Assembly: GCA_951406725.2 (NCBI GenBank)
Contig: OX597821.1
Location: 104,160,001-104,224,000 of the forward strand
DNA length: 64,000 nucleotides
Direction of reading: 5' to 3'
Source of the DNA: Octopus vulgaris
Taxonomy: Eukaryota
A model generated the notes under the pieces. That model was not told the DNA's origin, searched no databases, and worked only from the letters and a program-made list of their open reading frames with translations. The translations under genes and the position numbers were made by a program. This document shows positions 8,030 through 64,000 of this stretch, piece after piece (positions within the stretch are counted from its first letter, which is position 1; each line of letters begins with the position of its first letter).

Positions 8030-9503
8030 CTGTATTTAGCTTCTGGAACGTCTCATAGCCAACATAGAAGAGCTCCACTTTCCTTGGTACCAGGTTTCCA
8101 TGTTCAGAATGTCCTGATGAAACTTCTCCCCGTGCTCGTCACTGACGGCCACAAGATTTTCAGGGGAAACGTGAGAGTTCAGAAGTTGATTTTTAGGCTC
8201 ATATTGCATCCCAAGGACTTGTATTATGTAGCTCTTTCACATTGTGCCAGAATAGTTCTCTGCACTGTGATTCCAAAAACCTCTCTGCAAATTTGCTTAA
8301 ATGAGAGCCATGCAGCTTTTACAACATCACTGAACTCTTCGTCAAACTTTTGGTCTATCATCAGCTCCCTAATCTGTGGAACAACAAAAATACCTTTCTT
8401 GATTTTTGCGTCACTTACTCTTGGAAATTTAGCCTTCAAATACGTGAATCCCTTGCCAGTTCTATTCATACCTTTGACAGAATTCTTCATCAACCCTAGC
8501 TTGATATGCAAAGGAGGCAGATAAATTTTCTCAGAATCAACAAGAAGAGGATTGATGAAATTCTTTTGTCCAGGAGTCAGAGATCGTATCGGCCACGCAT
8601 TAGTTTTGTAATGATTTTTCTTATCCTGTCTGTCCCACTCACAGAGAAAGCAACAAAGCTTGGTGTAACACAGGTGCATTCCATATAGAAGTGCCACAAC
8701 CTTTAGGTTACCAAAAATATTCCGCTTATTTACCTCATACTTAATTTTTTGCAACAGAATTTTCATACTTTCATTCATGTTAGTTGCATGGGCCGGAGGA
8801 AAAAAAGGAGACTTATTTCCATTATGGAGTAAAACTGCTTTCAATCTTACTTTGAGATGTCAATAGACAAACGCCCAACGTTCGTGCTATATTTGTGGTT
8901 AAGTTCCTCCATATCAGAATATACATGATTACAAAACACCACACCATCGACAAGTGAGAAGAAAATTACAAACTCATAATGCTGAGCACGATAAAAACTA
9001 ACTTTGGTTTCCTTCTGGAGAAGATTCCAGCCTTTTAACCTGGACGCAAGCAATTCAGCTTGCTTCATCGACATGTTTATATCCCGCACAAAGATCATTC
9101 AGATCTCCCTGATTCACCAAGTGTGACTCGCTTGAAGAACAGTCATGCTCAAAGTCCAAGTAATCTGTTTCTCTCTCTACATCTTCATTGCTCGACCCGT
9201 CGTCACTAAGTGTCATTTGTTTTGCTGTGTCAGGTGCAGGTAACTGTCTGAAACGTGATCTTTGGGCTCTCTCCAAACTATAGGGATAGCAAACGGCATA
9301 TGGCGTGAATCTTTTGTCCATGCTGTGAGAAACCTGACACAGGTTACACAATACATATGAGGGGCCCAGCTCTTATTCTGGTCACCCACATTTTTTAGTT
9401 AAAATAATGCTCATGGTGTTAAATGCCATCTTTGTAACGTGAATGTTAAGTCACCGCAAATATAGCAAATATCATTTACGAGGTTAATACAGTTTCTTGG
9501 CAT
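8030..9503 (-). pseudogene. Chapaev3-like transposase pseudogene
   Basis: Starts MPRNCINLVNDICYICG (ATG at 9503). It contains KAVLLHNGNK, GNLKVVALL..YTKLCCFLCEWD, LPPLHIKLGLMK and, near 8140, AVSDEHGEKFHQDI. Multiple frameshifts and stops. Confidence 0.85.
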
Positions 9504-19834: not shown

Positions 19835-20900
19835 ACAGATATGCAGGAAGTAAATAGACATCTTTATTTTTTCAAAACCTTTTGTTTAATACGCAAAGTG
19901 AACAATTGAAATGTAATCGATAGTTAGGACTACAGTCTTTAGTATGTTGTTGACATTCCCTTTGCAGTTTTTAATTCAGAAACTCTTTCTGGCATGGAAC
20001 TGACGATCTTTGTGATTGTCTCTTGTGGAATTTCTGCCCACTTCCTCTTTTCACGCAACAGTCAAAACAATCCATCTTCAGATTTAGGTTTCTGTCAACT
20101 TTTTTCGTATAGCTCTATCTAGTATGATCCAAAGATCTTCAATTCGGTTCATGTCAGGAGATTGGCTCGGGCAAGGGAGCTTTTTGGACCCACTTTCAGT
20201 CAACCAATGTTGATTCTTTTTCGTTATGTTATCGTGTGAACACATCGGGAGTAGTCCTTGCTTAAGTATTTCAATGTATTTTTCGGAGTTTATTGTTCCA
20301 ACACATTCAATCAGCTCAGAACGACCATTGCTAATGACAGCTCCCCATACCATTACATATATACCGCCATGTTTCACAGTTGGTTGGAGTCGTTTCAAAT
20401 CAAATTCTTGATTAGAAAGCCTCCAGATCCAAACATGTCCACTGTCTGAAACTAATGCAAATCTGAGAAAATCACTCTATTCCCAAATGAACTGGATTTT
20501 TCTGGCATCTCCTTAGCCCATTTCTTACTATTCATGATATTAATTGGTTGAAGAAGAGGTTTTCTTCTAGCTGCTCGTCTATAATAACCAAGCTCATGCT
20601 TATATGTAACACACGTTCATGGACTAACTTCTAGCTCTTTTTCAATGTCAGAAGCCTTCGAACGGGGTTCGTTTTTCACGGTTCTATTCGAACAGCGAAG
20701 CTTTATTTCCGAGGGTCCACGTCGGTCGGGACGAGAATCTGTTGATTCTTTTCCTTGGCTTTTGAATTGCACTATAATTCTATTAACAGTAGCAAGAGGA
20801 ATTTGTAGATTTTCGGCAACTTTCCACTGGCTAAGACCAGTCTCAGATTGCCCAACAAATACCAGAGAATGGTAGAGCAGTGTAGATACAAAGGCTGGCA
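19835..20900 (-). mobile_element. Tc1-like transposon, degenerate transposase
   Basis: PTVKHGGIYVMVWG...INSEKYIEIL and PSQSPDMNRIEDLW. The left end starts TA-CAG. Confidence 0.85.
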
Positions 20901-22657
20901 GGCAATTCGCTGCTGGCGTGTTGTGGAGTATTTTTGTTTTTGTTTCTTGTCAGTGCAAAGAACTGGCTGGGCATAGGTTACTAACACAAGAAATGAGAGG
21001 GCCTGAAGTTACATCTCCGAAGCTGCAGAGAAGGCCACCAGATAGATTTGGATAAAGAAAGACTGACCAGTGGCTTGCTCTAATAGAACGCAAAGATAGA
21101 TATACATGTAAGGACGTGTGTATAAATGTATAATATGGCTGTTATATCGTGTATTCCTGTTTATAATAGAAAAAAAAAGAGAACTGCTAATCTAGCATTT
21201 CGTTTACTATGTGAGATTCAATTGTAAGTGAAGTTATTACCTTTATTTTTATCGTTGTGAAAGAAAACCGTTTATTTCGAATATTCTAAGAAAACTTTAG
21301 AGTTGCTTTTTTGTTTGTGTTCTCTACAACCTTGGTTTTCCTGGCTACTCAATCATTTTCATCGGATGATGTTTGTTCTGTTCTTTTTTTAAATGTCTAT
21401 GAGTGACATTATTAACTCGTTTTTCCTCTGTCTGCGAATTTTGTTTTTTCACAATATCGATCTGCGGTCTGTTTTTTTTTTCTTTTTCTTCTAAGATAAT
21501 TATTTTTACCTTGAATAAGAAGACAGTTTGGTTTGTGTATTTGTATACGAGATATATTTGGTGATAAATGCATACAATAGCCAGGTCATCGGCTGCTGTA
21601 TTTCCACTGTCATCTTGAAAAACGTTTTCCGGTACCTCTCTTCCTTGCCTCTTAATGGGAGAAAGGAAATATGTTTAGCGTTATTTTCTTCCAAAGAATG
21701 TGCTGGTACTTATCACTCAGACACTCATTTTTCTTCGTTGCAAATTTGAAGTTTATGGAATTTCCTACGATGTTCCGATTCCTTTACAATCTTCCAAAAT
21801 TTTCGCATAAATTCTCTTTATTTCTTTATTTCATTGTAGGTAGAACCAAAAATCAAACAACAAATGAAAAGGAAGAAATTCGATTGACCGACAGAAAATC
21901 CTGGTATTATATTATAGAACGAAAGGGGACTACCGTGGAACTATTTATATTATCCAGTCAATCTTTAGGAAGTAAATACATTGCTCTACTTAGTTGTGTC
22001 CCACAAATATGAGTTGACGACACCCGACAACATCAACGATATCTTATCATCCTATAAATACCCGTAATTAACCGGGGTCAATGAAACTGACGGCCAAACA
22101 ACCCACACAACAATCATTTATTTATATATATTGCTTTGGTGTAATGGCGAAAACACCTCTGTGAATTTAAGAGAGGTGGATTCGCGTCTCATGAGCGGCT
22201 TTCAATATTTTAGTCTCAGATATGGCTGCGTCGTTCAAGAAGGCCGGCTGGCAGCCACATGTATTCCTGTTCACTCCCATTGCATCAATGCCCTTTATTG
22301 TGCCTTACCGTTATATTTCCCTAGTAAAATCGATTGCCCGCATCCATGGTTTTTCTTAAAGGCAGGACTTCATTGTAAGTTGTTGAAAACTTTCAGTAAA
22401 CGCGTATTTCTGATATAAGTTTCATTAGGCGACATACTTTGAATTTTTATTTGATTTGTTTGTATATGAATATTTAAGAAAGGACTTAAACAGGTACTCA
22501 TTAATTGGTAGAAACATCGACCAAGGAATTTTAATAAGCACCACTATAAAATGAAACACTCTGAACTTTTGTACTCGCCGGCTTCAAATAAAAAAACACC
22601 CTTTGCACCCATAATTTATGAAGAGCGAACATAAATATTTTTATAAGCAGACTCCGG

Positions 22658-22731
<74 letters not shown>

Positions 22732-25115
22732 GTGTGTGTGTGTGTGTGTTTGTGTGTGGGTATACAGATATAAAGAAATACATTCGTATATAGAATTTCA
22801 GACATGTGTGCGTGTGTATGTTCGCTTGTGTGTGTACGTGTGTATATGTGTGTATGTGTGTGTGCGTGCGTGTGTGTGTACATGTGTGTAGGCGAGCGAC
22901 AATAAACCAACTTAAAACTGTGAGAACACGAACTGAATAATATATACTTCCTAAGTAAAAACATTTTAGATTTCAGACGCGATTATGGTGTGAAGTTTTT
23001 CAAGCCATAAATTTACCATTATACAAAAAAAATATTGTAATGCCACTTATTGTTTTAGCAAAATACCCATTAAATGTGATTGTAAATTTATTAGATTTCG
23101 TGTTGTATCCTATCTCCTATTTTCATAGATTCTGCGGATTAATATTTAAAACACTGGGTGTAAAATTTATCTTTTTTTTATCCATCACTAAATTATTTAC
23201 TTGAAAGAGTGTTTATACTTTGAAAATAACTTATGGGCAAAGGTATAACGATTCCCTAAGGCTTATAAAGAGAAGACAGGTGACTTATTGTTTAAGGTTT
23301 TGCCCCCAGGATTTCGAAGATACTTAACGGTGTTTTACGTTGGCTTTTAGCAAAGTTCTTCACTTTACGTTGCTCTCGTCCACTCAGTTGTAAAATATTA
23401 AGGCTGCATCGGGAGAATGTTATGATCCCGATTACTTATATGACACAGACACCGAATAACAGAGCTTATGAGTCGAAGGAGTCGACGAGGCAACTACATT
23501 GTGTATGACACATATGGAAAAGTTGATAAATTTGGTTTACAACGATTACGTTTCATTGCACCCCCACCCTGTCGAATAAGTACAAAATCGAAAATTTCCC
23601 CCTTTATAGTATGGCAGCTGAAATATATATTTTCTGCAATTTTATCAGTTCTATTATAGCTCGTAGAAGATAAGAGCAATATTGTTTTGGATACTCAGGT
23701 AAAATCTAAACTAGTAAATGCGCATGACGAGATATACAGATGTGTTTTAAGTACTGATATGTGGTCATGCTTGAGTTCTGCCTTGACGCCCTTCTTTTTA
23801 AAACCTGTCGGAACTTGTGATTCGGAGGGGCACTTTCTAGATGCAATCCCACTGTCATTCATGGCCGAAGGTGATCCTTTCCTTTCAAAGATATGTTGTA
23901 ATAAATATTAGGGTGCAGCATATATTTAACAATCCGAAAAGGAAAGACGCAATGCTAATATATGTATGAGCATTCAGAAGGGAGATTTCAAGATGCAACT
24001 CCATGGTCATTCATGACCGAAGAGTCCTTTAGCTTTGTTTTGAATTATCAACTTCAGAAATAAAGACAAAAGAGGGAACAACAACGTTCTTCTCCAAATA
24101 CGTTTGGTAGTTAAAGAAGTAAAACATCGAAATCACGTGAAACGGAAAATGCGAAAGCAACAGGCTATGCATATCAATTGCCAAATATAATCGTTTAGCA
24201 GAAGAGGAAAATGTTAATGAATCACGCTGGGCTACAACACAAATTATTTTTGGCTCGAACACAATGTTTAGAAAACGGAATTTATGGAATGCCCTAACCA
24301 CTGGGCCATTGCACATCCACATAAATGCTTACACCATTATGCAAAATGTCACAAATAGATAAAGCGATAGCGTGTCTCAATTTCAGCATTTCATGCTTTT
24401 CTTTTGTCTTCCCGTGTTACTTTGAAATTAGATCTAGTTTGGAATACACAGAAATCCATGAAACAGGTCGCTTTTGAAATCATATTCTCTCTTGGTTAAT
24501 CGGACCGATGACAAACATTGATTAATCCAAAGCCATCTAATCATATATTCACAAGTGTTTTATTTTTATCTTAGTTAACACTACTCACGCTCGCCCTCGT
24601 TTGCGAAGTTAGATTCTTATATACAAAAATTTATCAGCCATATCTGAAAAACATAACAAAATATTTATGTTATATGAACTACAGTAAAATTCGTGAAATC
24701 TGAGATTACTGAAAATAGATATATCTAAAGAATTCAATATATTTTAAATTTTAGACATAAACACAACACTTTTATTTAGTTTCGTAATATATTGATATTT
24801 TAATAAAATTCTTGGAAGAGATTTAGAGAAGATGAAGTGAGACAATGAAAACATCAGGAGAAACGAAAATAGAAGTATACACACACAAACGAAAATAGAA
24901 CTATACACATCGCAAAACGAAAATAGAAGTATACATACACACACGTATATATATATATATATACAACACACAAATGTGTGTGTGTGTATGTGTGCATATT
25001 TATATATATATATATAACATTTGGCGCGAGTGCGATGATTTGAAAATTTTAGGTCAGATATTGCCGAGGCAGGGATAGAGATGCCTCGTGATAATATCTG
25101 CTCGGATCTTGGCTG

Positions 25116-25220
25116 TTTCTTACTGACGAATCTATCGGCCTATGGAAGATTGGCTTGATTTAATTTAATCAGGTTAGTTTACCATTAAACAATAGATGAA
25201 ACGGTGCATCGTATAAGAAA
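25116..25220 (+). ncRNA. Type I hammerhead ribozyme, copy 1 (predicted cleavage after GUA, nt 25213)
   Basis: Stem I TTTCTTA(25116-22)/TAAGAAA(25214-20); core CTGACGA(25123-29); stem II ATCTAT(25130-35)/ATAGAT(25192-97); GAAA(25198-201); stem III ACGG-TGCA-TCGT; A25213. Confidence 0.92.
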
Positions 25221-25600
25221 TTAGAGGGTAAATGTTTTTTTAATTTTCTCCTGGTTTGCGGAATTGATGTTATTTTGCGGTTGAAGCTTTGGCTGTTATT
25301 TCTAGTGGGTGAATGGCCTATTGTGGCCATTCCTTGATTGTGATGTTGAACTTATAAATTGTCTATGACTATTTAATTTTTTCCCACTAGGCCGCTGGTG
25401 GCAAATAAATTCTACGAAATATTTTGCCACCCTATATTGATTAATTATGAATTTTCTGGTTAATTCCGTAATGGAATCGGCGGCTTATATTTGCTGCCGA
25501 TAAATTTGGCGCGAGTGCGATGATTTGAAAATTTTAGGTCAGATATTGCCGAGGCAGGGATAGAGATGCCTCGTGATAATATCTGCTCGGATCTTGGCTG

Positions 25601-25705
25601 TTTCTTACTGACGAATCTATCGGCCTATGGAAGATTGGCTTGATTTAATTTAATCAGGTTAGTTTACCATTAAACAATAGATGAAACGGTGCATCGTATA
25701 AGAAA
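25601..25705 (+). ncRNA. Type I hammerhead ribozyme, copy 2 (predicted cleavage after nt 25698)
   Basis: Identical to copy 1: CTGACGA at 25608-14, GAAA at 25683-86, GTA at 25696-98. Confidence 0.92.
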
Positions 25706-25926
25706 TTAGAGGGTAAATGTTTTTTTAATTTTCTCCTGGTTTGCGGAATTGATGTTATTTTGCGGTTGAAGCTTTGGCTGTTATTTCTAGTGGGTGAATG
25801 GCCTATTGTGGCCATTCCTTGATTGTGATGTTGAACTTATAAATGGCCTATGACTATTTAATTTTTTTCCCACTAGGCCGCTGGTGGCAAATAAATTCTA
25901 CGAAATTTTTTGCCACCCTATATTGA

Positions 25927-26004
<78 letters not shown>

Positions 26005-26008
26005 GTGT

Positions 26009-26039
<31 letters not shown>

Positions 26040-26528
26040 CAACACACAAATGTGTGTGTGCATGTGTGCATATTTATTTATATATACAACACACAAATGT
26101 GTGTGTGTGTATGTGTGCATATTTATGTATATATATATATATATACATATATACAATCACACACATTATTTATATAGTAATAACAAAAATGACTTCTGGA
26201 AGGAAATGTTATACCTTGTTAATAACGTATAAAGATTTCCATCCACAATACTTTTTTACGTTATTACTATATTTATCCTAAGTTGTAAGGAGTTCTGCAT
26301 ATATAACCATCCCATGGGAATACTCTGGAAGATGAGAATAATAGTGTAGCAGTACAGGAGCTTTTATGTATATGTAGTCGGTAGCTGAAAATGTACTGTA
26401 GCCTGCCAGAAATACTACGCCTTGTGTAACGTAACACACACATATATACACACGTATGTCTGTGTGTGTATTTATGATTGTTTGAAATCGCCCATTGTAG
26501 TTTCCCAAGAAAAGAAAATTATACTTAA

Positions 26529-31570: not shown

Positions 31571-33584
31571 AAAGAACCCGGAACCATGTTGTTGGTATGC
31601 AAGCTACTTACCACACAGCCACTCTTGCGCCTATATCTGTATATCGAACTTTGGGATGTGTGGATGGAATATAGAACAATATGTTATGTACCTAGCAAAG
31701 ACCTCTGATGTTGACTTGTGGTGCATAAGAGCACTCATATTTATGTCGTTGATAGAACTGCCACATTACATGATCTCACAATACTTAAGCTCCCAAGATT
31801 CTGATATCCGGTAGCAGCATAATGACTGAATCTTCCTATCAGACATATGCAGAATTTCATGTAAACTCAAGCACTGTTATCACAAATAACCCGTAATTAC
31901 TGATGACGGGCGTAACGTTTATACCGAGCGGCAATCTTTATATCCAGACATTAGTGTCTGAATCGACATTGAATTTCTATATAACATTGACAGGGATAGT
32001 CGGTTATGTCACTAATGGACGGCTGCCTCTGAAGAATCCTGACTTGTCCAACAAGTTCGGAGAAAGAAATAACCAAATACTTATTAAGCAACTCCGAACG
32101 ATAAAAAGTAAAAGCGACCCTGGTGACATTTGAACTCCGAACGCAAAGACCGATGAAATGCTGCTCAGCGTTCTGTCAGGCGTGTCAACTATTCAGTCGG
32201 TTCAGTGTCTTATAATGTTACAAGTACCAACAAATAAATTTATCTGCGTAACTCGTCGATTTGTACCAAATTTAATTTACCTTCGGTGACACATAACCAC
32301 AAAATAGTAATTAACTATCGTAATAGGAACATCTAGATATCTTTTCCGTTTACAATTTAATAACATGTATACAATGATATCTGTCATTCATCGTTCTATC
32401 TACCGATTCCTGCATTCCTTCTGCGTTATCTATGTCATGCGTTAGTGAAAAAGCTATTTCAAACGCATAATATAAATAACTACAAACCAAAGCTAATCTA
32501 TGGTACTATGTCGATTGGAGTCAAGACTTCACAAATGGTCCTCGTGTATTTTCTCTGCATATGTATATCGGTGAGGCATTCTGACATTCGAGTGCTACAA
32601 GCGCTAGTGTGGTTCACTTTACTGCATGTGGGAAATTCTGTCTGTGGGTGTGCTTGTTTGTGGAGCTTTGATGTAACTGGACACGTGAGTAACTCATGTC
32701 TAGAAACCTCCTGACATACTTAGATTATTGAAAAAAAATCGCTAATAGGGCCCCTGGAAGGGATCCTTATACCTTCTACAAATAATATATTTTATGTAAA
32801 CATCCAATGGAAATAACCCATAACACGTGCACTTACAATTATCAGTCTTTAGCGAAGCCATCAATATTTGATTCTTTTGATCAGCGGACCTAATTTTGCA
32901 TTTCACTACTCACAGTTTTGGACTGTTTAATCTCATTTAACTTTCTTGATTTTAGTCTTGAACCTTAAAGACTTCAGTCATACATTTATACATATATATA
33001 TTTTTGCGCTAACCTTATTATTGCACTTTCTTCATTTGAAACATAAAGACTTCATTCATACATTTATATACATATATACTTTTTTGAGCTTATATATACT
33101 ACAATTATATATTAGCTTTAATAAATTACCCTTGGTAAAGTTAACCTTTAAATTGCCACGACGAGTAAGAGTACGAGTGGGTATTTTTCTTCATAAGCTG
33201 CTCGAACGCGACAACGGCGATCTCAAGTAAGTCCCCGATTCCTCATATTTAATATTTACTAGATCAAACAATTACTCTCGTCTATTCTACTTCAATATCT
33301 AAACAGTTATATACATATTGCTGTAATTAATTTAGACATTGCATTAATAGACAATTTTCAACATCTCCAAATAACTAAATGCTGGCAATGCATGCAGGGT
33401 TTTCAATTAAATTTGATCATACTTTGAGTGCTCGTAACTCCGATAATTCTGCATTTTTACAGTTATATTATAAATTTATTCGTCTATGCATCCAACGGCA
33501 AAACCAAAAACATTGTGTATCACGAAGCCCTCCGAGAGTGAAATTTTGGAACAAAGATGCCTCTTCCTCTGACAACCTTTGCCG

Positions 33585-34045
33585 CCAAACTTCGACAACA
33601 TCTCTCGCCAACCTCCGAAAACCTCTCTCGCCAATCTCCGACAGTCTCTCTCGCCAACCTCCGAAAACCTCTCTCGCCAACCTCCGACAGTCTCTCTCGC
33701 CAACGTTCGATAACATCTTTCACTAACCTCCGAAAACCTCTCTCGCCAACCTCCGACAGTGTCTCCCGCCAACCTCCGACAGTGTCTCTCGCCAGCCTCT
33801 GACGTCTCTCTCGCCAACCTCCGACAGTCTCTCTCGCCAGCCTCCGACGTCTCTCTCGCCAACCTCCGACAATCTCTCTCGCCAACCTACGACAGTCTCT
33901 CTCGCCAATCCCCGAAAACCTCTCTCGCCAGCCTCCGAAGTCTCTCTCGCCAGCCTCCGACAGTCTCTCCCGCCAACCTCCGGTAGTCTCTCTCGCTAAC
34001 CTCCGACAACCTCTCTCGCGACTTCCGGAGACCTCTCTCACCAAC
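33585..34045. repeat. GC-rich minisatellite, ~21-23-bp unit CTCTCTCGCCAACCTCCGA(CAGT/AAAC), ~20 copies
   Basis: Directly visible. It accounts for the repetitive ARET/GERD ORFs. Confidence 0.95.
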
Positions 34046-34180
34046 CAACGACAATGCCTCCCTCCTCAAGCTGAGAGTTTTTTGGACATTTTCGCGATGG
34101 AAAATACACCTTTTGTGACAGTTATAACGGAATTGCTTTTTTATTATAGTAATAAGGCGATTAAATAGAACATCTTAACC

Positions 34181-47834: not shown

Positions 47835-49530
47835 GGTCCAGGCCATGTCTAACTTAATAGCACCAACTGAGAGGATTATTTGAATCCTGTTTAAGTCAAG
47901 TTTGGTTTATGGTCCATTCAAGTAGTGAGTTTTGGTTGGGTGAGTTGTATCCAATTATGGGTGGCTTATCTGGTATTCCTTCAAGGAATCTATCCAGACT
48001 CCGTTTAAAGTTGATGGGATCCTGTTCCTCTTTGGTCTCTTTCGGGACAATGTTAAAGAGGGCAGGGCCTGTTGAGGAAAAGAAATTATGGTGTAGTGTA
48101 CATGTATGCTGTGATCTTGAATTGGGCAGGGAACGTATGACCCGTGGTCCCAGTCTTGGATGAACCTTGAAGCTAATGTTCAGGTCGTTTGGGCAAAGTT
48201 GGCGGTATATTCTCCACATCATACAAATGATGTACCGCTCACGGCGCCGCTGGAGAGAGTAGAGTTTCAAGGCTTTAAGGCGATCCCAATAATCGAGAGC
48301 AGCCATGCCTTCAATTCGTTTAGTGAGTGCTCTCTAGGCTGATTCAATCCTCGAGATGTTTTGTCTAGTATGGGGAGACCACAGTGGGCAGCAGTATTCG
48401 AGGTGTGGCCGTACAAAGGAGGAGAAAAGTGGTATGATGACACCTTGTTCTCTGGACCGGAAAGTTCTTAAGATCCAGGAACTCATCCTACGAGCTATAT
48501 CGACCTTCTTGTTGATGTCTGCACTCCAACTGAGATCGTCATCAACAATTACACCCAGGTCTCTGATATTGTTAGAGGATGTGAGCGGTTCCCCTGAAGG
48601 AAGAGAGTATGGTTGTTTTAGTGAGGAATTTCTTCCAAAATGCATCAGCTCAAATTTTCCCTCGCTGGTGACTTTTGCTAGGAGTGAGTGGACTCCATCA
48701 ACTACAACATGTTGTGTTCTATTCGCCAGGAAATACTTGATCCAGTGTAGAACTTTTCCACGGATTCCAACATTTGCCAATTTTGAGAGTAGGATATTAT
48801 GGTCTACCCTGTCGAAAGCTTTACTGAAGTCAAGGTATATGACATCAGAGTTCGAACCTGTTCCCAAGGCTTTGAGTACATCTTCAATGTGGTGTAAGAG
48901 CTGTGTTAGACAGTCCCTGTCACAGCGAAAGCCATGCTGATTTGCATTTAGGAGTTTGTGGCTCTCCAGGAAGTCAGCTAGCCTTGATCTTAACACTCTT
49001 TCAAACACTTTGATGATGTGGGAGGTGAGTGAGATTGGGCGATAGTTGAGTGCGAGGGATCTGTTTCCCTGTTTGAAAACCGGGATGACTGCCTGGGATA
49101 GAAACTGTTTCGGTATATAACCTGCGTCTAACGAATTTCTCCAGAGATTGGTCAGAGGGACTGCAAGGAATGTCTACATTCTTTCAGGAGACTAGCGGGA
49201 AATCAATCAGGGCCTACAGCAGAGTAGTATTTGACCTCATTTATTGCTGCTATGATGTCAGTGGCAGTGAAGGTTATGTCTGAGATTTTATGTTGAGAGT
49301 AAACTTCGTTCGCTTCTCTTACGTGAATATCAGTGGGAACACTAAAGACAGAGCAGTATTGTTTCTGCAGTATTTCTGCCATTTCTTTAGCATCGTGTTG
49401 GGGAATGCCGTTATCATCAATCAATGGCCCAATGGGTGAGACAGTGGTTCTATGCTTATTTGCATAAGAATAGAACACTTTTGGGTTCTGTTTGATGTTT
49501 TTGATTACCTACTGTTCCTCCACAGCTCTT
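47835..49530 (-). mobile_element. CR1-clade LINE ORF2 fragment with internal deletion
   Basis: NYRPISLTSH, NQHGFR, YLDFSKAFDRVDH, IRDLGV, VRPHLEYCCPLWSP and LYSLQRRRER. The GVPQG..YADD block is missing at the KVTS|EGKF junction (~48661). Confidence 0.9.
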
Positions 49531-57859: not shown

Positions 57860-58320
57860 ATCACTGCCAAGAATAGAACGCAGAATCTTGGGATTAGTAG
57901 TCCGCATTCCTAACCACTGCGCGATATACCCGTGGGCAATTATTGTGTGAATTTTAGGGCTTGTAATCTAATATGTTCCCATCATTCCTTAATACCAGTT
58001 CCCATATGCTGTTCATATCTACACTCGGTCTGCTTAGGAGGTTGTTGTGCCCTAGCATATGAGCTGCTTCATTTAGTTTTCGAATTTTCCAGTGGTGTTC
58101 TCTATCTATTATTTTAACTTCATCCCATAGGGGAATGTGATCTCCATTTTTCCATACACGATCTGCTATAACCGATTTATCAATATCTCCTCGTGTCACA
58201 GCTTTGTGATGTTCCTCTACCCTTATTTCGAGGGGGCCGCATGTTTCGTCTTTGCATAATCTACCACAGCTGCCTGGGATGGAGTACACGCATTTTTTGG
58301 TCATATTCTCTTCTATCTGT
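57650..58320 (-). mobile_element. Penelope-like element 3' fragment (GIY-YIG) with tRNA-like segment and decayed hammerhead
   Basis: CVYSIPGSCGRLCKDETCGPLEIRVEEH...HWKIRKLNEAAHM (GIY-YIG-like). The 3' region has a tRNA-like sequence at 57860-57937 and a decayed HHR at 57691-57736. Confidence 0.8.
57691..57736 (-). ncRNA. Decayed minimal type I hammerhead
   Basis: Minus strand: GACGC-CTGATAA-A-GACTG..CAGCC-ATAA(vs GAAA)-CGTT-GTGTT. Stems I and II still pair, but the core is mutated. Confidence 0.6.
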
Positions 58321-60519: not shown

Positions 60520-61427
60520 ATTATTCTAAGTTCATTGTAGTAGTGTCATATGAGGTGGAAGTATTCAAAAGAGGTTTATATTTTGCAATAAAATGTGACT
60601 CTTTGCTAAGGCGCTGATTATATGTTGCATCATCCTCAAATTTAGAGAGGGGAAATCTTCTGATGTTGGGTAGTTCGTTAGTAGCGCAAATGTTGATGTG
60701 TTCACTTAATGCTATTTTTCTGTATTCTCGTAGTTTAATCTGGGATCTATGCACGGTCATCCTTTGGTGTAGATTGTTTTTTGTTTCACCAATGTATTGC
60801 TCTCTACATTCTGAGCAAATTAAAACATATATTAGGTTTTCCGAAGCTCATGTGAGGTTGTTTTTCACTGTAAAACGTTGATCCTGTTTGAAGTAGAACT
60901 TCGATCTCTCAATTAGGTTGTTCCGCATTTGGTTCTAGTTAGTTTCATTCGTAAAATGAGCCATTTTAATTTTGCTCAGATTCCTTTCAATTTTGCTGTA
61001 TCAATGCAACTCTGAATTTTGATTACAATCAACCAATTACTCTATCTCGTAATTCAAAGAATCTGATGTTATTTGGAAGTTGGGAAATTTGGGTAATGTT
61101 AACCAAGCAACAGACGGCGTGGCATTGGCAACTTGTTACCACGACAACCACGTGCTGTGTTGTGTTTCACTTCAAACCACATGATTTTTTTCCACGCGCA
61201 TGTTTTGTTTTAATTTCTCTGTATGTTAGTATATTACATATTTTTTGTGTTTCTGTGTGTTAGTATTCTTCTGTGCTTTTTCTGTGTTTTAGTAATTTAA
61301 AATGTTTATCATTTCATATATTTTGGAGACAAATTCTTTGTAGACCAGTGTTATTCTTATTGAACTTTACAAATCAAAGCATGGGAAAGTTACTCAACTT
61401 TGGAGTTTTGGAGACAGACGCTCCTTC

Positions 61428-61466
<39 letters not shown>

Positions 61467-62540
61467 ATACACACACACACATACCTACACATCACTTATA
61501 TTTTAATGATGTGCGCAAATACATGACAGGTATACATAATACATAATAATGAGAGAGAGAAAAGTAACAAGAATATGATACATTTTGATTTTATTTGGTA
61601 TTTCTGTTTATTTAGAAGCCTACCGCTCCGCTAAACGCAGAAAGTCTCTGTCTGGTTAATTGCTAAAAATCACAGTTTTTTCGATTTTTAAATCTTTAAC
61701 TTTTTCCTCCAATTTCTTTTCTCCACAACATCATATCCTCATAGCAATAAGACTGGAAAACTACATAATTTAACCGATTTTTTTACTTCCTTTAAAAAAA
61801 ATGGATATTTTGGGAATCAGTTTAACTAGATCCCCGCATTTTTTTACTGTTGGTTTCCATGTTGGTAATGAGTGTGCTTGGGCCTGTGCTAGAAGATTTT
61901 TCATTGACTTAGGTTGTCATTTGTTCGTTAGGAAATTGTGCGTTTGGAGGATTTGCTTCATTCTGTGGTTCCATTTTAGAAAATGAATGTTATGGAGGAT
62001 GGTGTCGAAGGCCTCATTGTTTAGAAGGTTGTGTATGGATATGTATGGTAGGGCTTTTGGTTGTAATTCATTCTTCAGTTTGAGATGTCTGGATTCGTGG
62101 ATGTTGAGTTGTAGGGCACATTGAAAAACCGACATCGATTAGTGATGGTGGGTAATTCCTGCTGATGAGTGTATCCTTTAACTCATATAGTCGTCAGTCC
62201 CTGGTGCTTGTATCTGATACTATAGTGCAAATCCTGTTTGTCAAGTTCAAAGAGATATTCATTCTAGTGAGTTTGTTAGTGTAGCATGTGTTCAAAGGTA
62301 GATATTGCTTGGAGTCTGTGGTTTTATTGTACATGTCTGCCTCTATTTTGCTGTTGGAGTTCTTAATGACGATGTTGAAGAATGGGAGCTGTTGGTGGCT
62401 ACATTCCATCGTAAATTGAATGTTTATGTCAAGTCCATTTAAAAGTGCTTGAAATAATTTTATTCTGTCTATACCTCTATGCCAATGAATGAGGCAGTCA
62501 TCCAGATAACTCTTCTAGTTATTTTGTATGTAAAGGGAGA
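60520..62540 (-). mobile_element. Penelope-like element (RT plus GIY-YIG), degenerate, interrupted at ~60960-61800
   Basis: KSYLDDCLIHW (~62500), LPFFNIVI..MYNKTTDSKQYL..RICTIVSD. The GIY-YIG reads NLIYVLICSECREQYIGET..RMTVHRSQI..KESHFIAKYKPLLN. Confidence 0.85.
61330..61350 (+). mobile_element. Chapaev3-like terminus inside the PLE interruption
   Basis: ACAAATTCTTTGTAGACCAGTG-TTA is nearly identical to the TIR ending at 10120. Confidence 0.55.
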
Positions 62541-62790
62541 ATGAATTACCATATTTTCTTAGTACATTACGATATATATATGTGTATATATGTGTATGTA
62601 TATATACGCAAACATATATTTACATATGGGTGTATATATACATACATGTATACACACATATATGCATACATCAATGCTTGTATGCATGCATACATACATT
62701 CATCAATGTATGCATACGTACATATATGCATACATATATGCATGCATACATACATACATACATACATACATACATACATACATACATACA

Positions 62791-63569: not shown

Positions 63570-64000
63570 GGGATCATTCGATTTGATCGACCCCAGTACG
63601 CAACTGGTACTTAATTTATCAACCCCGAAATGATGAAAGGCAAAGTTGACATCGGTGGAATTTGAACTCAGAATATAGCGGCAGACGAAATAGCTATTTC
63701 TTACTACCCACAAGGGGCTAAACACAGAGGGGACAATCAAGGACAGACAAACGGATTATGTCGATTACATCGACCCCAGTGCGTAACTGGTACTTAATTT
63801 ATCGACCCCGGAAGGATGAAAAGCAAAGTCGACCTCGGCGGGATTTGAACTCAGAACGTAACGGCAGACGAAATACTTATTTCTTTATTACCCACAAGGG
63901 GCTAAACACAGAGAGCACAAACAAGGACAGACAAAGGGATTAAGTCGATTACATCGACCTCAGTGCGTAACTGCCACTTAATTTATCGACCCCGGAAGGA
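63570..64000 (-). repeat. Head-to-tail array (~183-bp period) of the headless body of the Meta-like SINE
   Basis: TCGATT..ATCGACCyCAGT recurs at ~63578, 63761 and 63945. The array runs off the window end. Confidence 0.85.

Follow-up and report, generated by a model that had tools for sequence, protein, structure and literature searches.

A young, dispersed retrozyme family in Octopus vulgaris, probably mobilised by Neptune-type Penelope-like elements through coupled two-strand priming

Retrozymes without long terminal repeats (non-LTR retrozymes) are known from animals as non-coding elements of less than 50% GC, built of tandem type I hammerhead ribozymes with a palindromic loop III; their monomers are strongly self-paired and they coexist with Penelope-like elements (PLEs), which have only been proposed as helpers (PMC7229834). 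Which element moves animal retrozymes, and whether the RNA circle serves as template, is called open in PMC7229834, PMC7761336 and bioRxiv 10.64898/2026.07.22.740005. Here, we describe a tandem repeat with a unit of 485 nt in a 64,000-nt stretch of the genome of Octopus vulgaris (contig OX597821.1, positions 104,160,001 to 104,224,000; "the window"), to which all coordinates refer. As far as sequence can tell, the repeat carries all the marks of an animal non-LTR retrozyme just named. It differs from the elements of PMC7229834 in its unit of 481-493 nt instead of 170-400 nt, in a hammerhead with a 56-nt stem II extension and an A-U closing pair, and in that insertion ends, target and inverted arms are resolved; circles were demonstrated there, whereas the octopus circle is predicted.

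The kind of element is already known, and what is new is probably the family together with testable evidence on its movement, that is, mobilisation by Neptune-type PLEs with coupled priming on two strands. It is virtually certain that the array belongs to a retrozyme family. In the literature on retrozymes, hammerheads, cephalopods and PLE priming that was covered, neither the family nor the pairing rule reported below is described; supplements and Repbase/Dfam may list the family. The main text of PMC13282606, on an octopus genome, has no mention of hammerhead or ribozyme.

Paired insertion ends in a dispersed family

The array in the window is one locus of a large, young and dispersed family. 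With unit positions (q) counted from 25019, the features on which the argument turns are the following.

25019..25503, plus strand: retrozyme unit copy 1, 485 nt, 37% GC, non-coding; q1 is 25019
25504..25934, plus strand: retrozyme unit copy 2, covers q1-430 and stops at preferred 3' end site 2
25334..25344, plus strand: site 1 (q326), TTGATTGTGAT; preferred 3' end family-wide and presumed start of reverse transcription, 131 nt past the cut
25437..25448, plus strand: site 2 (q430), TTGATTAATTAT; second preferred 3' end, 235 nt past the cut, used at 25934
25214..25698, plus strand: predicted cut-to-cut monomer, 485 nt; putative linear and circular RNA, presuming cleavage and ligation

A search of the genome with the unit gave at least 193 matches, with 40 of 1503 candidates scored. 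The exact 20-mer spanning the hammerhead cut occurs 922 times (control, 0), and the unit adjoins (TA)n in an exact junction 744 times at site 2 and 451 times at site 1 (controls, 0). Contig C1, which is 8% of the 2.8-Gb genome, holds at least 90 loci, and 24 of these 90 have two intact hammerheads one unit apart. Scaling from C1 leads to about 1,100 loci genome-wide, some 300 of them with two hammerheads at this spacing. Full monomers are 481-493 nt long (94 monomers). Nearest neighbours among 69 well-covered loci differ by 0-10 substitutions (median 2) and units inside one locus by a median of 0.6%, which, with the calibration of PMC13282606 (a distance of 0.09 equals 25 million years), gives an age of the order of a million years; this is only an upper guide, since the divergence includes errors of reverse transcription. 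Subfamilies succeed one another and retain the structure. An earlier note on this DNA, made from the window's letters, had proposed a young non-LTR retrozyme and a genome-wide check of copy number and tandem organisation, with a single-locus unit that has no transcripts as a point against it; the multi-copy, dispersed family found here bears the proposal out.

The end structure of the copies is the most informative feature of the family. In the majority of loci the arms are inverted head to head, with both ends facing outwards. The hammerhead 20-mer was used to pick 40 loci on contigs C1 and C2. Of their 69 outward 3' ends, 61 fall no more than 5 nt from q326 or q430, despite the 57 AT dinucleotides of the unit, and 66 are followed by (TA)n; the 5' ends are scattered. 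The two sites are 104 nt apart and neither is the ribozyme cut (q195). Both terminate in AT after a GC-rich hairpin and are preceded by TTGATT, a motif whose sole further copy in the unit lies within the stem II extension.

Two-ended loci combine the two sites in a fixed manner. In a first set of 80 loci, site 1 is paired with site 2 at 46 of the 54 two-ended loci, and in a further set of 53 loci at 36 of 41; the remaining 8 and 5, respectively, have an unclassified end, and like-with-like pairs number 0 in either set. Pooled, this makes 82 of 95 two-ended loci with one end of each kind, 0 same-site pairs and 13 unclassified. Opposite arms of one locus differ by a median of 0.6% (119 pairs), compared to 3.1% between loci (34,627 pairs). 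The two arms overlap in unit sequence and share a haplotype, their joint usually shows an overlap or gap of a few bases, and there is no bias in arm length between the sites (22 of 45). The 82:0 rule suggests a simple explanation both for the "tail at one end" long noted for PLEs and for their inverted copies: coupled priming of the two strands on one RNA. We regard such coupled two-site priming as likely.

Neptune-type elements as candidate helper

Searches with the PLE fragments of the window led to three Neptune-type PLE families, located outside it, that have intact frames of 781-784 aa with reverse transcriptase (RT) and GIY-YIG domains, a CX4CXXC linker and an upstream frame. One Neptune-type family has at least 22 copies that are 100% identical over the 262-aa RT query, among the 146 matches listed. 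Neptune-type copies have two alternative ends, about 38-40 nt from each other and both followed by (TA)n, and at the inverted loci with both ends readable a short end is paired with a long end in 7 of 7 cases. This two-end pattern is the PLE "tail" of the literature, where it is described at one end only (PMC8557442, PMC3846280) and where a (TA)n bias of PLEs is also reported (PMC8557442). In an anole PLE, the tail has been traced to two internal start sites of the RT, an enzyme predicted to be dimeric, which cuts DNA rich in A and T and extends both of its strands (PMC11167929). Naiads likewise prefer (TA)n; they are reported to have long been inactive in cephalopods (PMC8557442). Nine of 132 retrozyme loci have a Neptune 3' end no farther than about 400 bp away, a count without a chance control. 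Taken as a whole, a PLE-type mobilisation of the retrozyme is very likely.

The earlier note had offered three PLE relics in the window as candidate helpers. A PLE helper is indeed indicated by the Neptune-type end signature and by the intact families elsewhere, but the relics are short fragments and not helpers. They are pieces of endonuclease/RT frames, all on the minus strand (2114-2663, 57954-58319, 60521-60919 and 61776-62577); three are Neptune-like and the fourth is of another PLE type, presumably Poseidon-like. No intact Poseidon-like helper was found among the 150 scored of 4080 candidates, the longest frame having 569 aa.

Several further features of the Neptune-type elements were observed. 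The retrozyme loci adjoining their 3' ends are L075, L077, L033, L079, L161, L052, L099, L175 and L074, and at L075, L077 and L033 the retrozyme and the Neptune 3' end share one (TA)n tract. In the young families the upstream frame overlaps the RT frame by -1 (L122:2685-2754, L136:3195-3258, L146:2739-2820); families A and B have TTTTTTA in this overlap, a likely frameshift site, and a frameshifted ORF1 is mentioned in the legend of Fig. 1 of PMC8557442. Four Neptune families bear a minimal hammerhead-like motif 56-184 nt upstream of their 3' ends; its stem III is palindromic, and UUGANAA takes the position of CUGANGA. We take UUGANAA to be a U3-A8 variant of the hammerhead core, an assumption that we could not confirm in print. 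The putative motifs are the following.

L122:5750-5790, minimal hammerhead-like motif
L136:6250-6290, minimal hammerhead-like motif
L146:5955-6000, minimal hammerhead-like motif
L077:3455-3490, minimal hammerhead-like motif

The hammerhead, its RNA and the window locus

The array contains two hammerheads of identical sequence.

25115..25221, plus strand: type I hammerhead 1, cut predicted after A25213; stem I 25115-25122/25214-25221, CUGACGA 25123-25129, stem II 25130-25135/25192-25197, GAAA 25198-25201
25600..25706, plus strand: type I hammerhead 2, identical to hammerhead 1, cut predicted after A25698; CTGACGA at 25608, GAAA at 25683, GUA with the predicted cut after 25698

A scan for type I hammerheads on both strands of the window found these two and one weak, chance-like match (stems of 5/3/3). 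Its predicted cuts at 25213 and 25698 are those of the earlier note and span the same monomer of 485 nt. Stems I, II and III have 8, 6 and 4 bp; stem I, previously counted as 7 bp, consists of 7 Watson-Crick pairs and one G-U, and the loop of stem III is the palindrome UGCA. The hammerhead had been called fully canonical, which is correct for CUGACGA, GAAA, GUA and the presence of three stems, but not for stem II, which bears the 56-nt extension and is closed by A-U, G10.1-C11.1 being the typical closing pair (PMC4209133). An Rfam search, as had been suggested for a check, returned no hammerhead at the gathering score or at E<=10 and no other Rfam ribozyme; the miss is probably due to the stem II extension. 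No hammerhead core was found on the minus strand of the unit. The 485-nt monomer folds better than its shuffles (z = -5.35 linear; z = -5.6 circular, with 40 shuffles), and its predicted fold is branched, not rod-like. The term "viroid-like", used for the circle before, does not fit a branched fold with a ribozyme core on one strand.

Unbiased figures for the ribozyme core come from the 53 loci picked by their junctions; loci picked by the 20-mer are biased for the 3' half of the core. None of the 11 strict core positions varies in the junction-picked loci (each is covered by 23-27 of them); variation is seen at N7 and H17 only. Over 133 loci, N7 is C in 58, T in 22, G in 12 and A in 9 loci, and H17 is A in 84 and C in 15. 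The chance that two varying positions out of 13 core positions are just N7 and H17 is 1 in 78. Core invariance by itself has a chance of about 0.12, because background variation is modest (85 of 484 positions). Shared variants are rarer in paired than in unpaired columns (22/280 versus 31/203, p = 0.012) and 13 of 21 shared changes at paired sites keep the pair. Intact cores are present in 93 of 94 cut-to-cut monomers, and the 133 loci contain 274 intact hammerhead copies, spread over 99 of them. In a single lineage the loop III palindrome TGCA is changed to TATA (7 loci) and one A-U pair of stem II to G-C (9 loci), each by one event. The core looks as if it were under selection, cleavage itself being predicted. 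A search for short-loop relatives of the hammerhead gave 3 matches versus 1 in the control.

C1 provides 92 arms anchored at exact junctions, and 68 of these reach the cut to within 30 nt. The cut is crossed by 57 of the 68, two cuts by 19; the other 11 end there, where 4.9 would be expected (P about 0.01, for an interval chosen post hoc). Judged from these arms, most templates are continuous over the cut, hence a circle or an uncut multimer. A minority may be cut monomers, or the enzyme may pause at the cut. Selection on the core favours RNA that is cut and ligated, since an uncut template would not need an active core, and that the circle is the main template appears rather more probable than its absence from this role. 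Two other lines of evidence were rejected: a count of 58 of 69 arms crossing the cut with 1 of 69 5' ends at the cut, obtained from loci picked by a cut-spanning 20-mer, and the use of array length as proof of rolling-circle synthesis, as the arrays have periodic shared variants. Such variants recur at a period of 4, 5 or 2 in arrays L033, L062, L063, L093 and L108; in L093 the period-2 pattern extends into the opposite arm, which would fit a dimeric template.

Four of 23 public sequencing runs were examined, three of which (X1, X2 and X6) were typed as RNA by guess, none being recorded as RNA. Contigs of these three and of one unlabelled large run cover the unit in 28-29 of 29 bins. One X1 contig bridges the cut; contigs cannot reveal circles, strand or level. 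The dominant alleles of X1 (25081 G, 25103 T and a deletion at 25109) reach a depth of 2136 of about 2430. A 22-mer of this haplotype occurs once in the assembly, and the allele is found in 3 of 221 sampled units. The dominance hints at transcription from few sources, bearing in mind that individuals differ and that the run type is guessed. A variant with 15 substitutions and 4 gaps (window 25037-25170) is seen in X1 and X2 and has only a partial match among the 133 loci. The lower depth of X1 contigs near the cut was not used, as contig depth cannot rank parts and the effect is absent in X2. The unit occurs under four coded organism labels (runs X6 and X16-X20). In X6, which has another organism label, 28 of the 29 bins are covered, so relatives probably share the family.

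The locus in the window itself lies in repetitive surroundings.

24935..25018, no strand: left flank, 49-nt minisatellite unit running into (TA)n, which is the target
25935..26135, no strand: right flank, long (TA)n followed by more 49-nt minisatellite units

The array has 1.9 head-to-tail copies (485 + 430 nt), which differ by 3 substitutions and 1 indel, in agreement with the two copies and about 4 differences noted before, apart from the second copy being partial. It is a one-armed insertion with its end at site 2 (25934), and a target-site duplication is unreadable at the right flank in the (TA)n context. Protein-coding capacity is lacking, as stated earlier: the longest ATG frames round the 485-nt circle have only 25 aa (plus strand) and 53 aa (minus strand). 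The retrozyme copies have no LTR and no tRNA, a primer binding site having had no separate search, and a search of the unit for Pol III A/B boxes and tRNA found none. The head-to-tail junction is present in contigs of public runs X15 and X6 and at many other genomic loci, which excludes an assembly artefact for the junction. Two alleles are private to the locus, 25224 G (q206 G, which both units carry) and 25360 T, and because these are absent from X1, X2 and X6 it is probably a passive copy.

Tandem Repeats Finder failed to report the 1.9-copy array. Elsewhere in the window there are a 23-bp array of about 21 copies (33566-34054) and a 184-bp repeat of 2.3 copies (63578-64000), the latter presumably resembling a common cephalopod SINE. 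Three broken frames on the minus strand we take to encode a reverse transcriptase of a long interspersed nuclear element (LINE; 47896-49508), a Tc1-type transposase (20084-20949) and another transposon protein (8224-9372).

Explanations weighed and known systems

The reading as a whole that we consider probable is that of a non-LTR retrozyme family which parasitises Neptune-type PLEs, uses coupled two-site priming and has the circle as its main template. Loci with two hammerheads would be transcribed, the transcript would cleave itself into monomers of 485-493 nt and a host ligase would close these into circles, as may be assumed from PMC7229834. The RT-endonuclease, presumably that of Neptune, would then nick both strands of a (TA)n target, and two cDNAs would start on the same RNA, one at q326 and the other at q430, helped by an AU microhomology of 2-3 nt. 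Both would be extended towards the 5' side, in most cases past the hammerhead junction and at times over more than a single round, and the joining of their far ends would give the head-to-head inverted insertion. If one arm were negligible, a plain tandem as in the window would result, and long arrays have in part expanded further in place.

A number of observations weigh against this. In all 12 copies computed, the active hammerhead fold lies 2.2-10.4 kcal/mol higher in energy than the minimum, and within the full unit of the window the pair probability of stem I is 0.01. Alignment A1 has only one compensatory pair; most shared changes keep a pair as a wobble, and eight of the 21 break pairs. 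The unit has no sequence kinship to 14 PLE 3' regions (five families sampled; others may exist), and for this reason the helper is assigned by signature only. The retrozyme sites are 104 nt apart, compared to 30-40 nt for PLE tails. In vitro, the anole PLE uses uncut RNA, independently of hammerhead activity (PMC11167929), and long arrays of 8-11 units have periodic shared variants, as expected from local duplication. Cleavage, circle and transcript of the retrozyme remain predictions.

Some of these points are also those that speak for the most serious alternative, which keeps the family and the PLE helper and takes as template an uncut, multimeric read-through RNA, with circles as by-products and arrays that grow by local recombination. 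The 57 of 68 arms crossing the cut are equally allowed by it, a hammerhead that is not the ground state and periodic variants in L033, L062 and L063 agree with it, and so does the use of unprocessed RNA by the anole element (PMC11167929). However, it gives no reason for the upkeep of a core in which N7 and H17 alone vary, the surplus of stops at the cut suggests that cut RNA exists, and circles are abundant for the retrozymes of coral, mussel and axolotl (PMC7229834); we hold it to be unlikely. Another non-LTR element that targets microsatellites, e.g. a LINE of the Dong/R4 or RTE type with L1-style twin priming, is a very improbable mover. Dong/R4 elements target microsatellites. The lack of homology between unit and PLE 3' regions would be accommodated, and an octopus genome has other LINEs with recent activity (PMC13282606, Table 1); on the other hand, two fixed internal ends, short-long pairing, overlapping inverted arms and the lack of poly(A) or a shared tail are the very features of the co-resident Neptune copies. 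The arms made by L1 twin priming, moreover, do not overlap. Farthest from the evidence is the view that the array arose by local tandem duplication or in assembly and resembles a hammerhead by chance. The surroundings are rich in microsatellites and Rfam makes no hammerhead call, but hundreds of dispersed loci on many contigs refute this idea, the junction is present in public runs and the core is conserved; its probability is next to nil.

That the circle also replicates from RNA to RNA, the genomic copies being captures of an RNA pool, would explain why the dominant X1 haplotype is nearly absent from the assembly and why the second variant of X1 and X2 has no full match among the 133 loci; the replacement of subfamilies with the structure kept would fit, too, and mussel circles likewise had no matching database copy (PMC7229834). 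Against it stand the plus-strand-only hammerhead core, the lack of any other Rfam ribozyme and the branched fold, and the runs are contigs of other individuals, in which one strongly transcribed locus would explain the same pattern. We regard this possibility, too, as very slight. Somewhat less remote, yet still improbable, is a circle that is no offshoot of a PLE: a viroid-like RNA of independent origin, propagated also at the RNA level, in which two bait sites for the dimer of the Neptune RT-endonuclease have evolved and whose roughly one thousand insertions form a dated record of the RNA population. In such a case the dimer would prime both nicked (TA)n strands on one circle and the two polymerases would follow each other round. 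Coupled two-site priming on one circular RNA that has no kinship to its helper and does not replicate from RNA to RNA is a good deal more plausible, with a chance a little below even. The Neptune-parasitic retrozyme family with coupled priming remains the explanation we favour.

On this explanation, the octopus family gives an unusually sharp genomic answer to the question which element moves retrozymes and how. It also provides a ready system for work in vitro: two start sites are mapped on the 485-nt RNA, the target is (TA)n, and the same genome contains intact helper frames.

Among described systems, the pLTR-derived (pseudo-LTR) retrozymes of Li, Clavereau and Pollet (2026; bioRxiv 10.64898/2026.07.22.740005) are alike in their tandem type I hammerheads and co-occurrence with PLEs. 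The octopus unit, called unusually large in the earlier note, does exceed the 170-400 nt of PMC7229834 but falls inside their range of 51-972 bp. Homology to Repbase entries, nearly all PLE pLTRs, was found there for 24 of 57 Xenopus families, and local amplification was favoured. An origin from a pLTR was considered for the octopus family and rejected, as there is no homology to PLE pLTRs among the five families sampled; in contrast to the Xenopus case, the unit lacks homology to the 14 PLE 3' regions, and the majority of arrays were inserted ready-made and have paired ends.

Hammerhead viroids and viroid-like satellite RNAs are similar in size, in the self-paired circle and in the hammerhead itself. 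The octopus family differs from hammerhead viroids (PMC7761336) by a ribozyme on one polarity and about a thousand genomic copies, and replication from RNA to RNA is without support. The closest likeness in the manner of insertion is to Neptune PLEs and the anole Poseidon element PAc (PMC8557442, PMC11167929, PMC3846280), which share the (TA)n target, 5' truncation, the inverted 5' copy, two alternative 3' ends and a hammerhead upstream of these ends. The retrozyme differs from them in having no open reading frame, in a full-size instead of a minimal hammerhead and in ends that are 104 instead of 30-40 nt apart. In the excerpts of these three papers the tail is optional at one end, no difference in start site was found between the strands and a strict coupling is unstated; in the octopus retrozyme, the two ends are paired.

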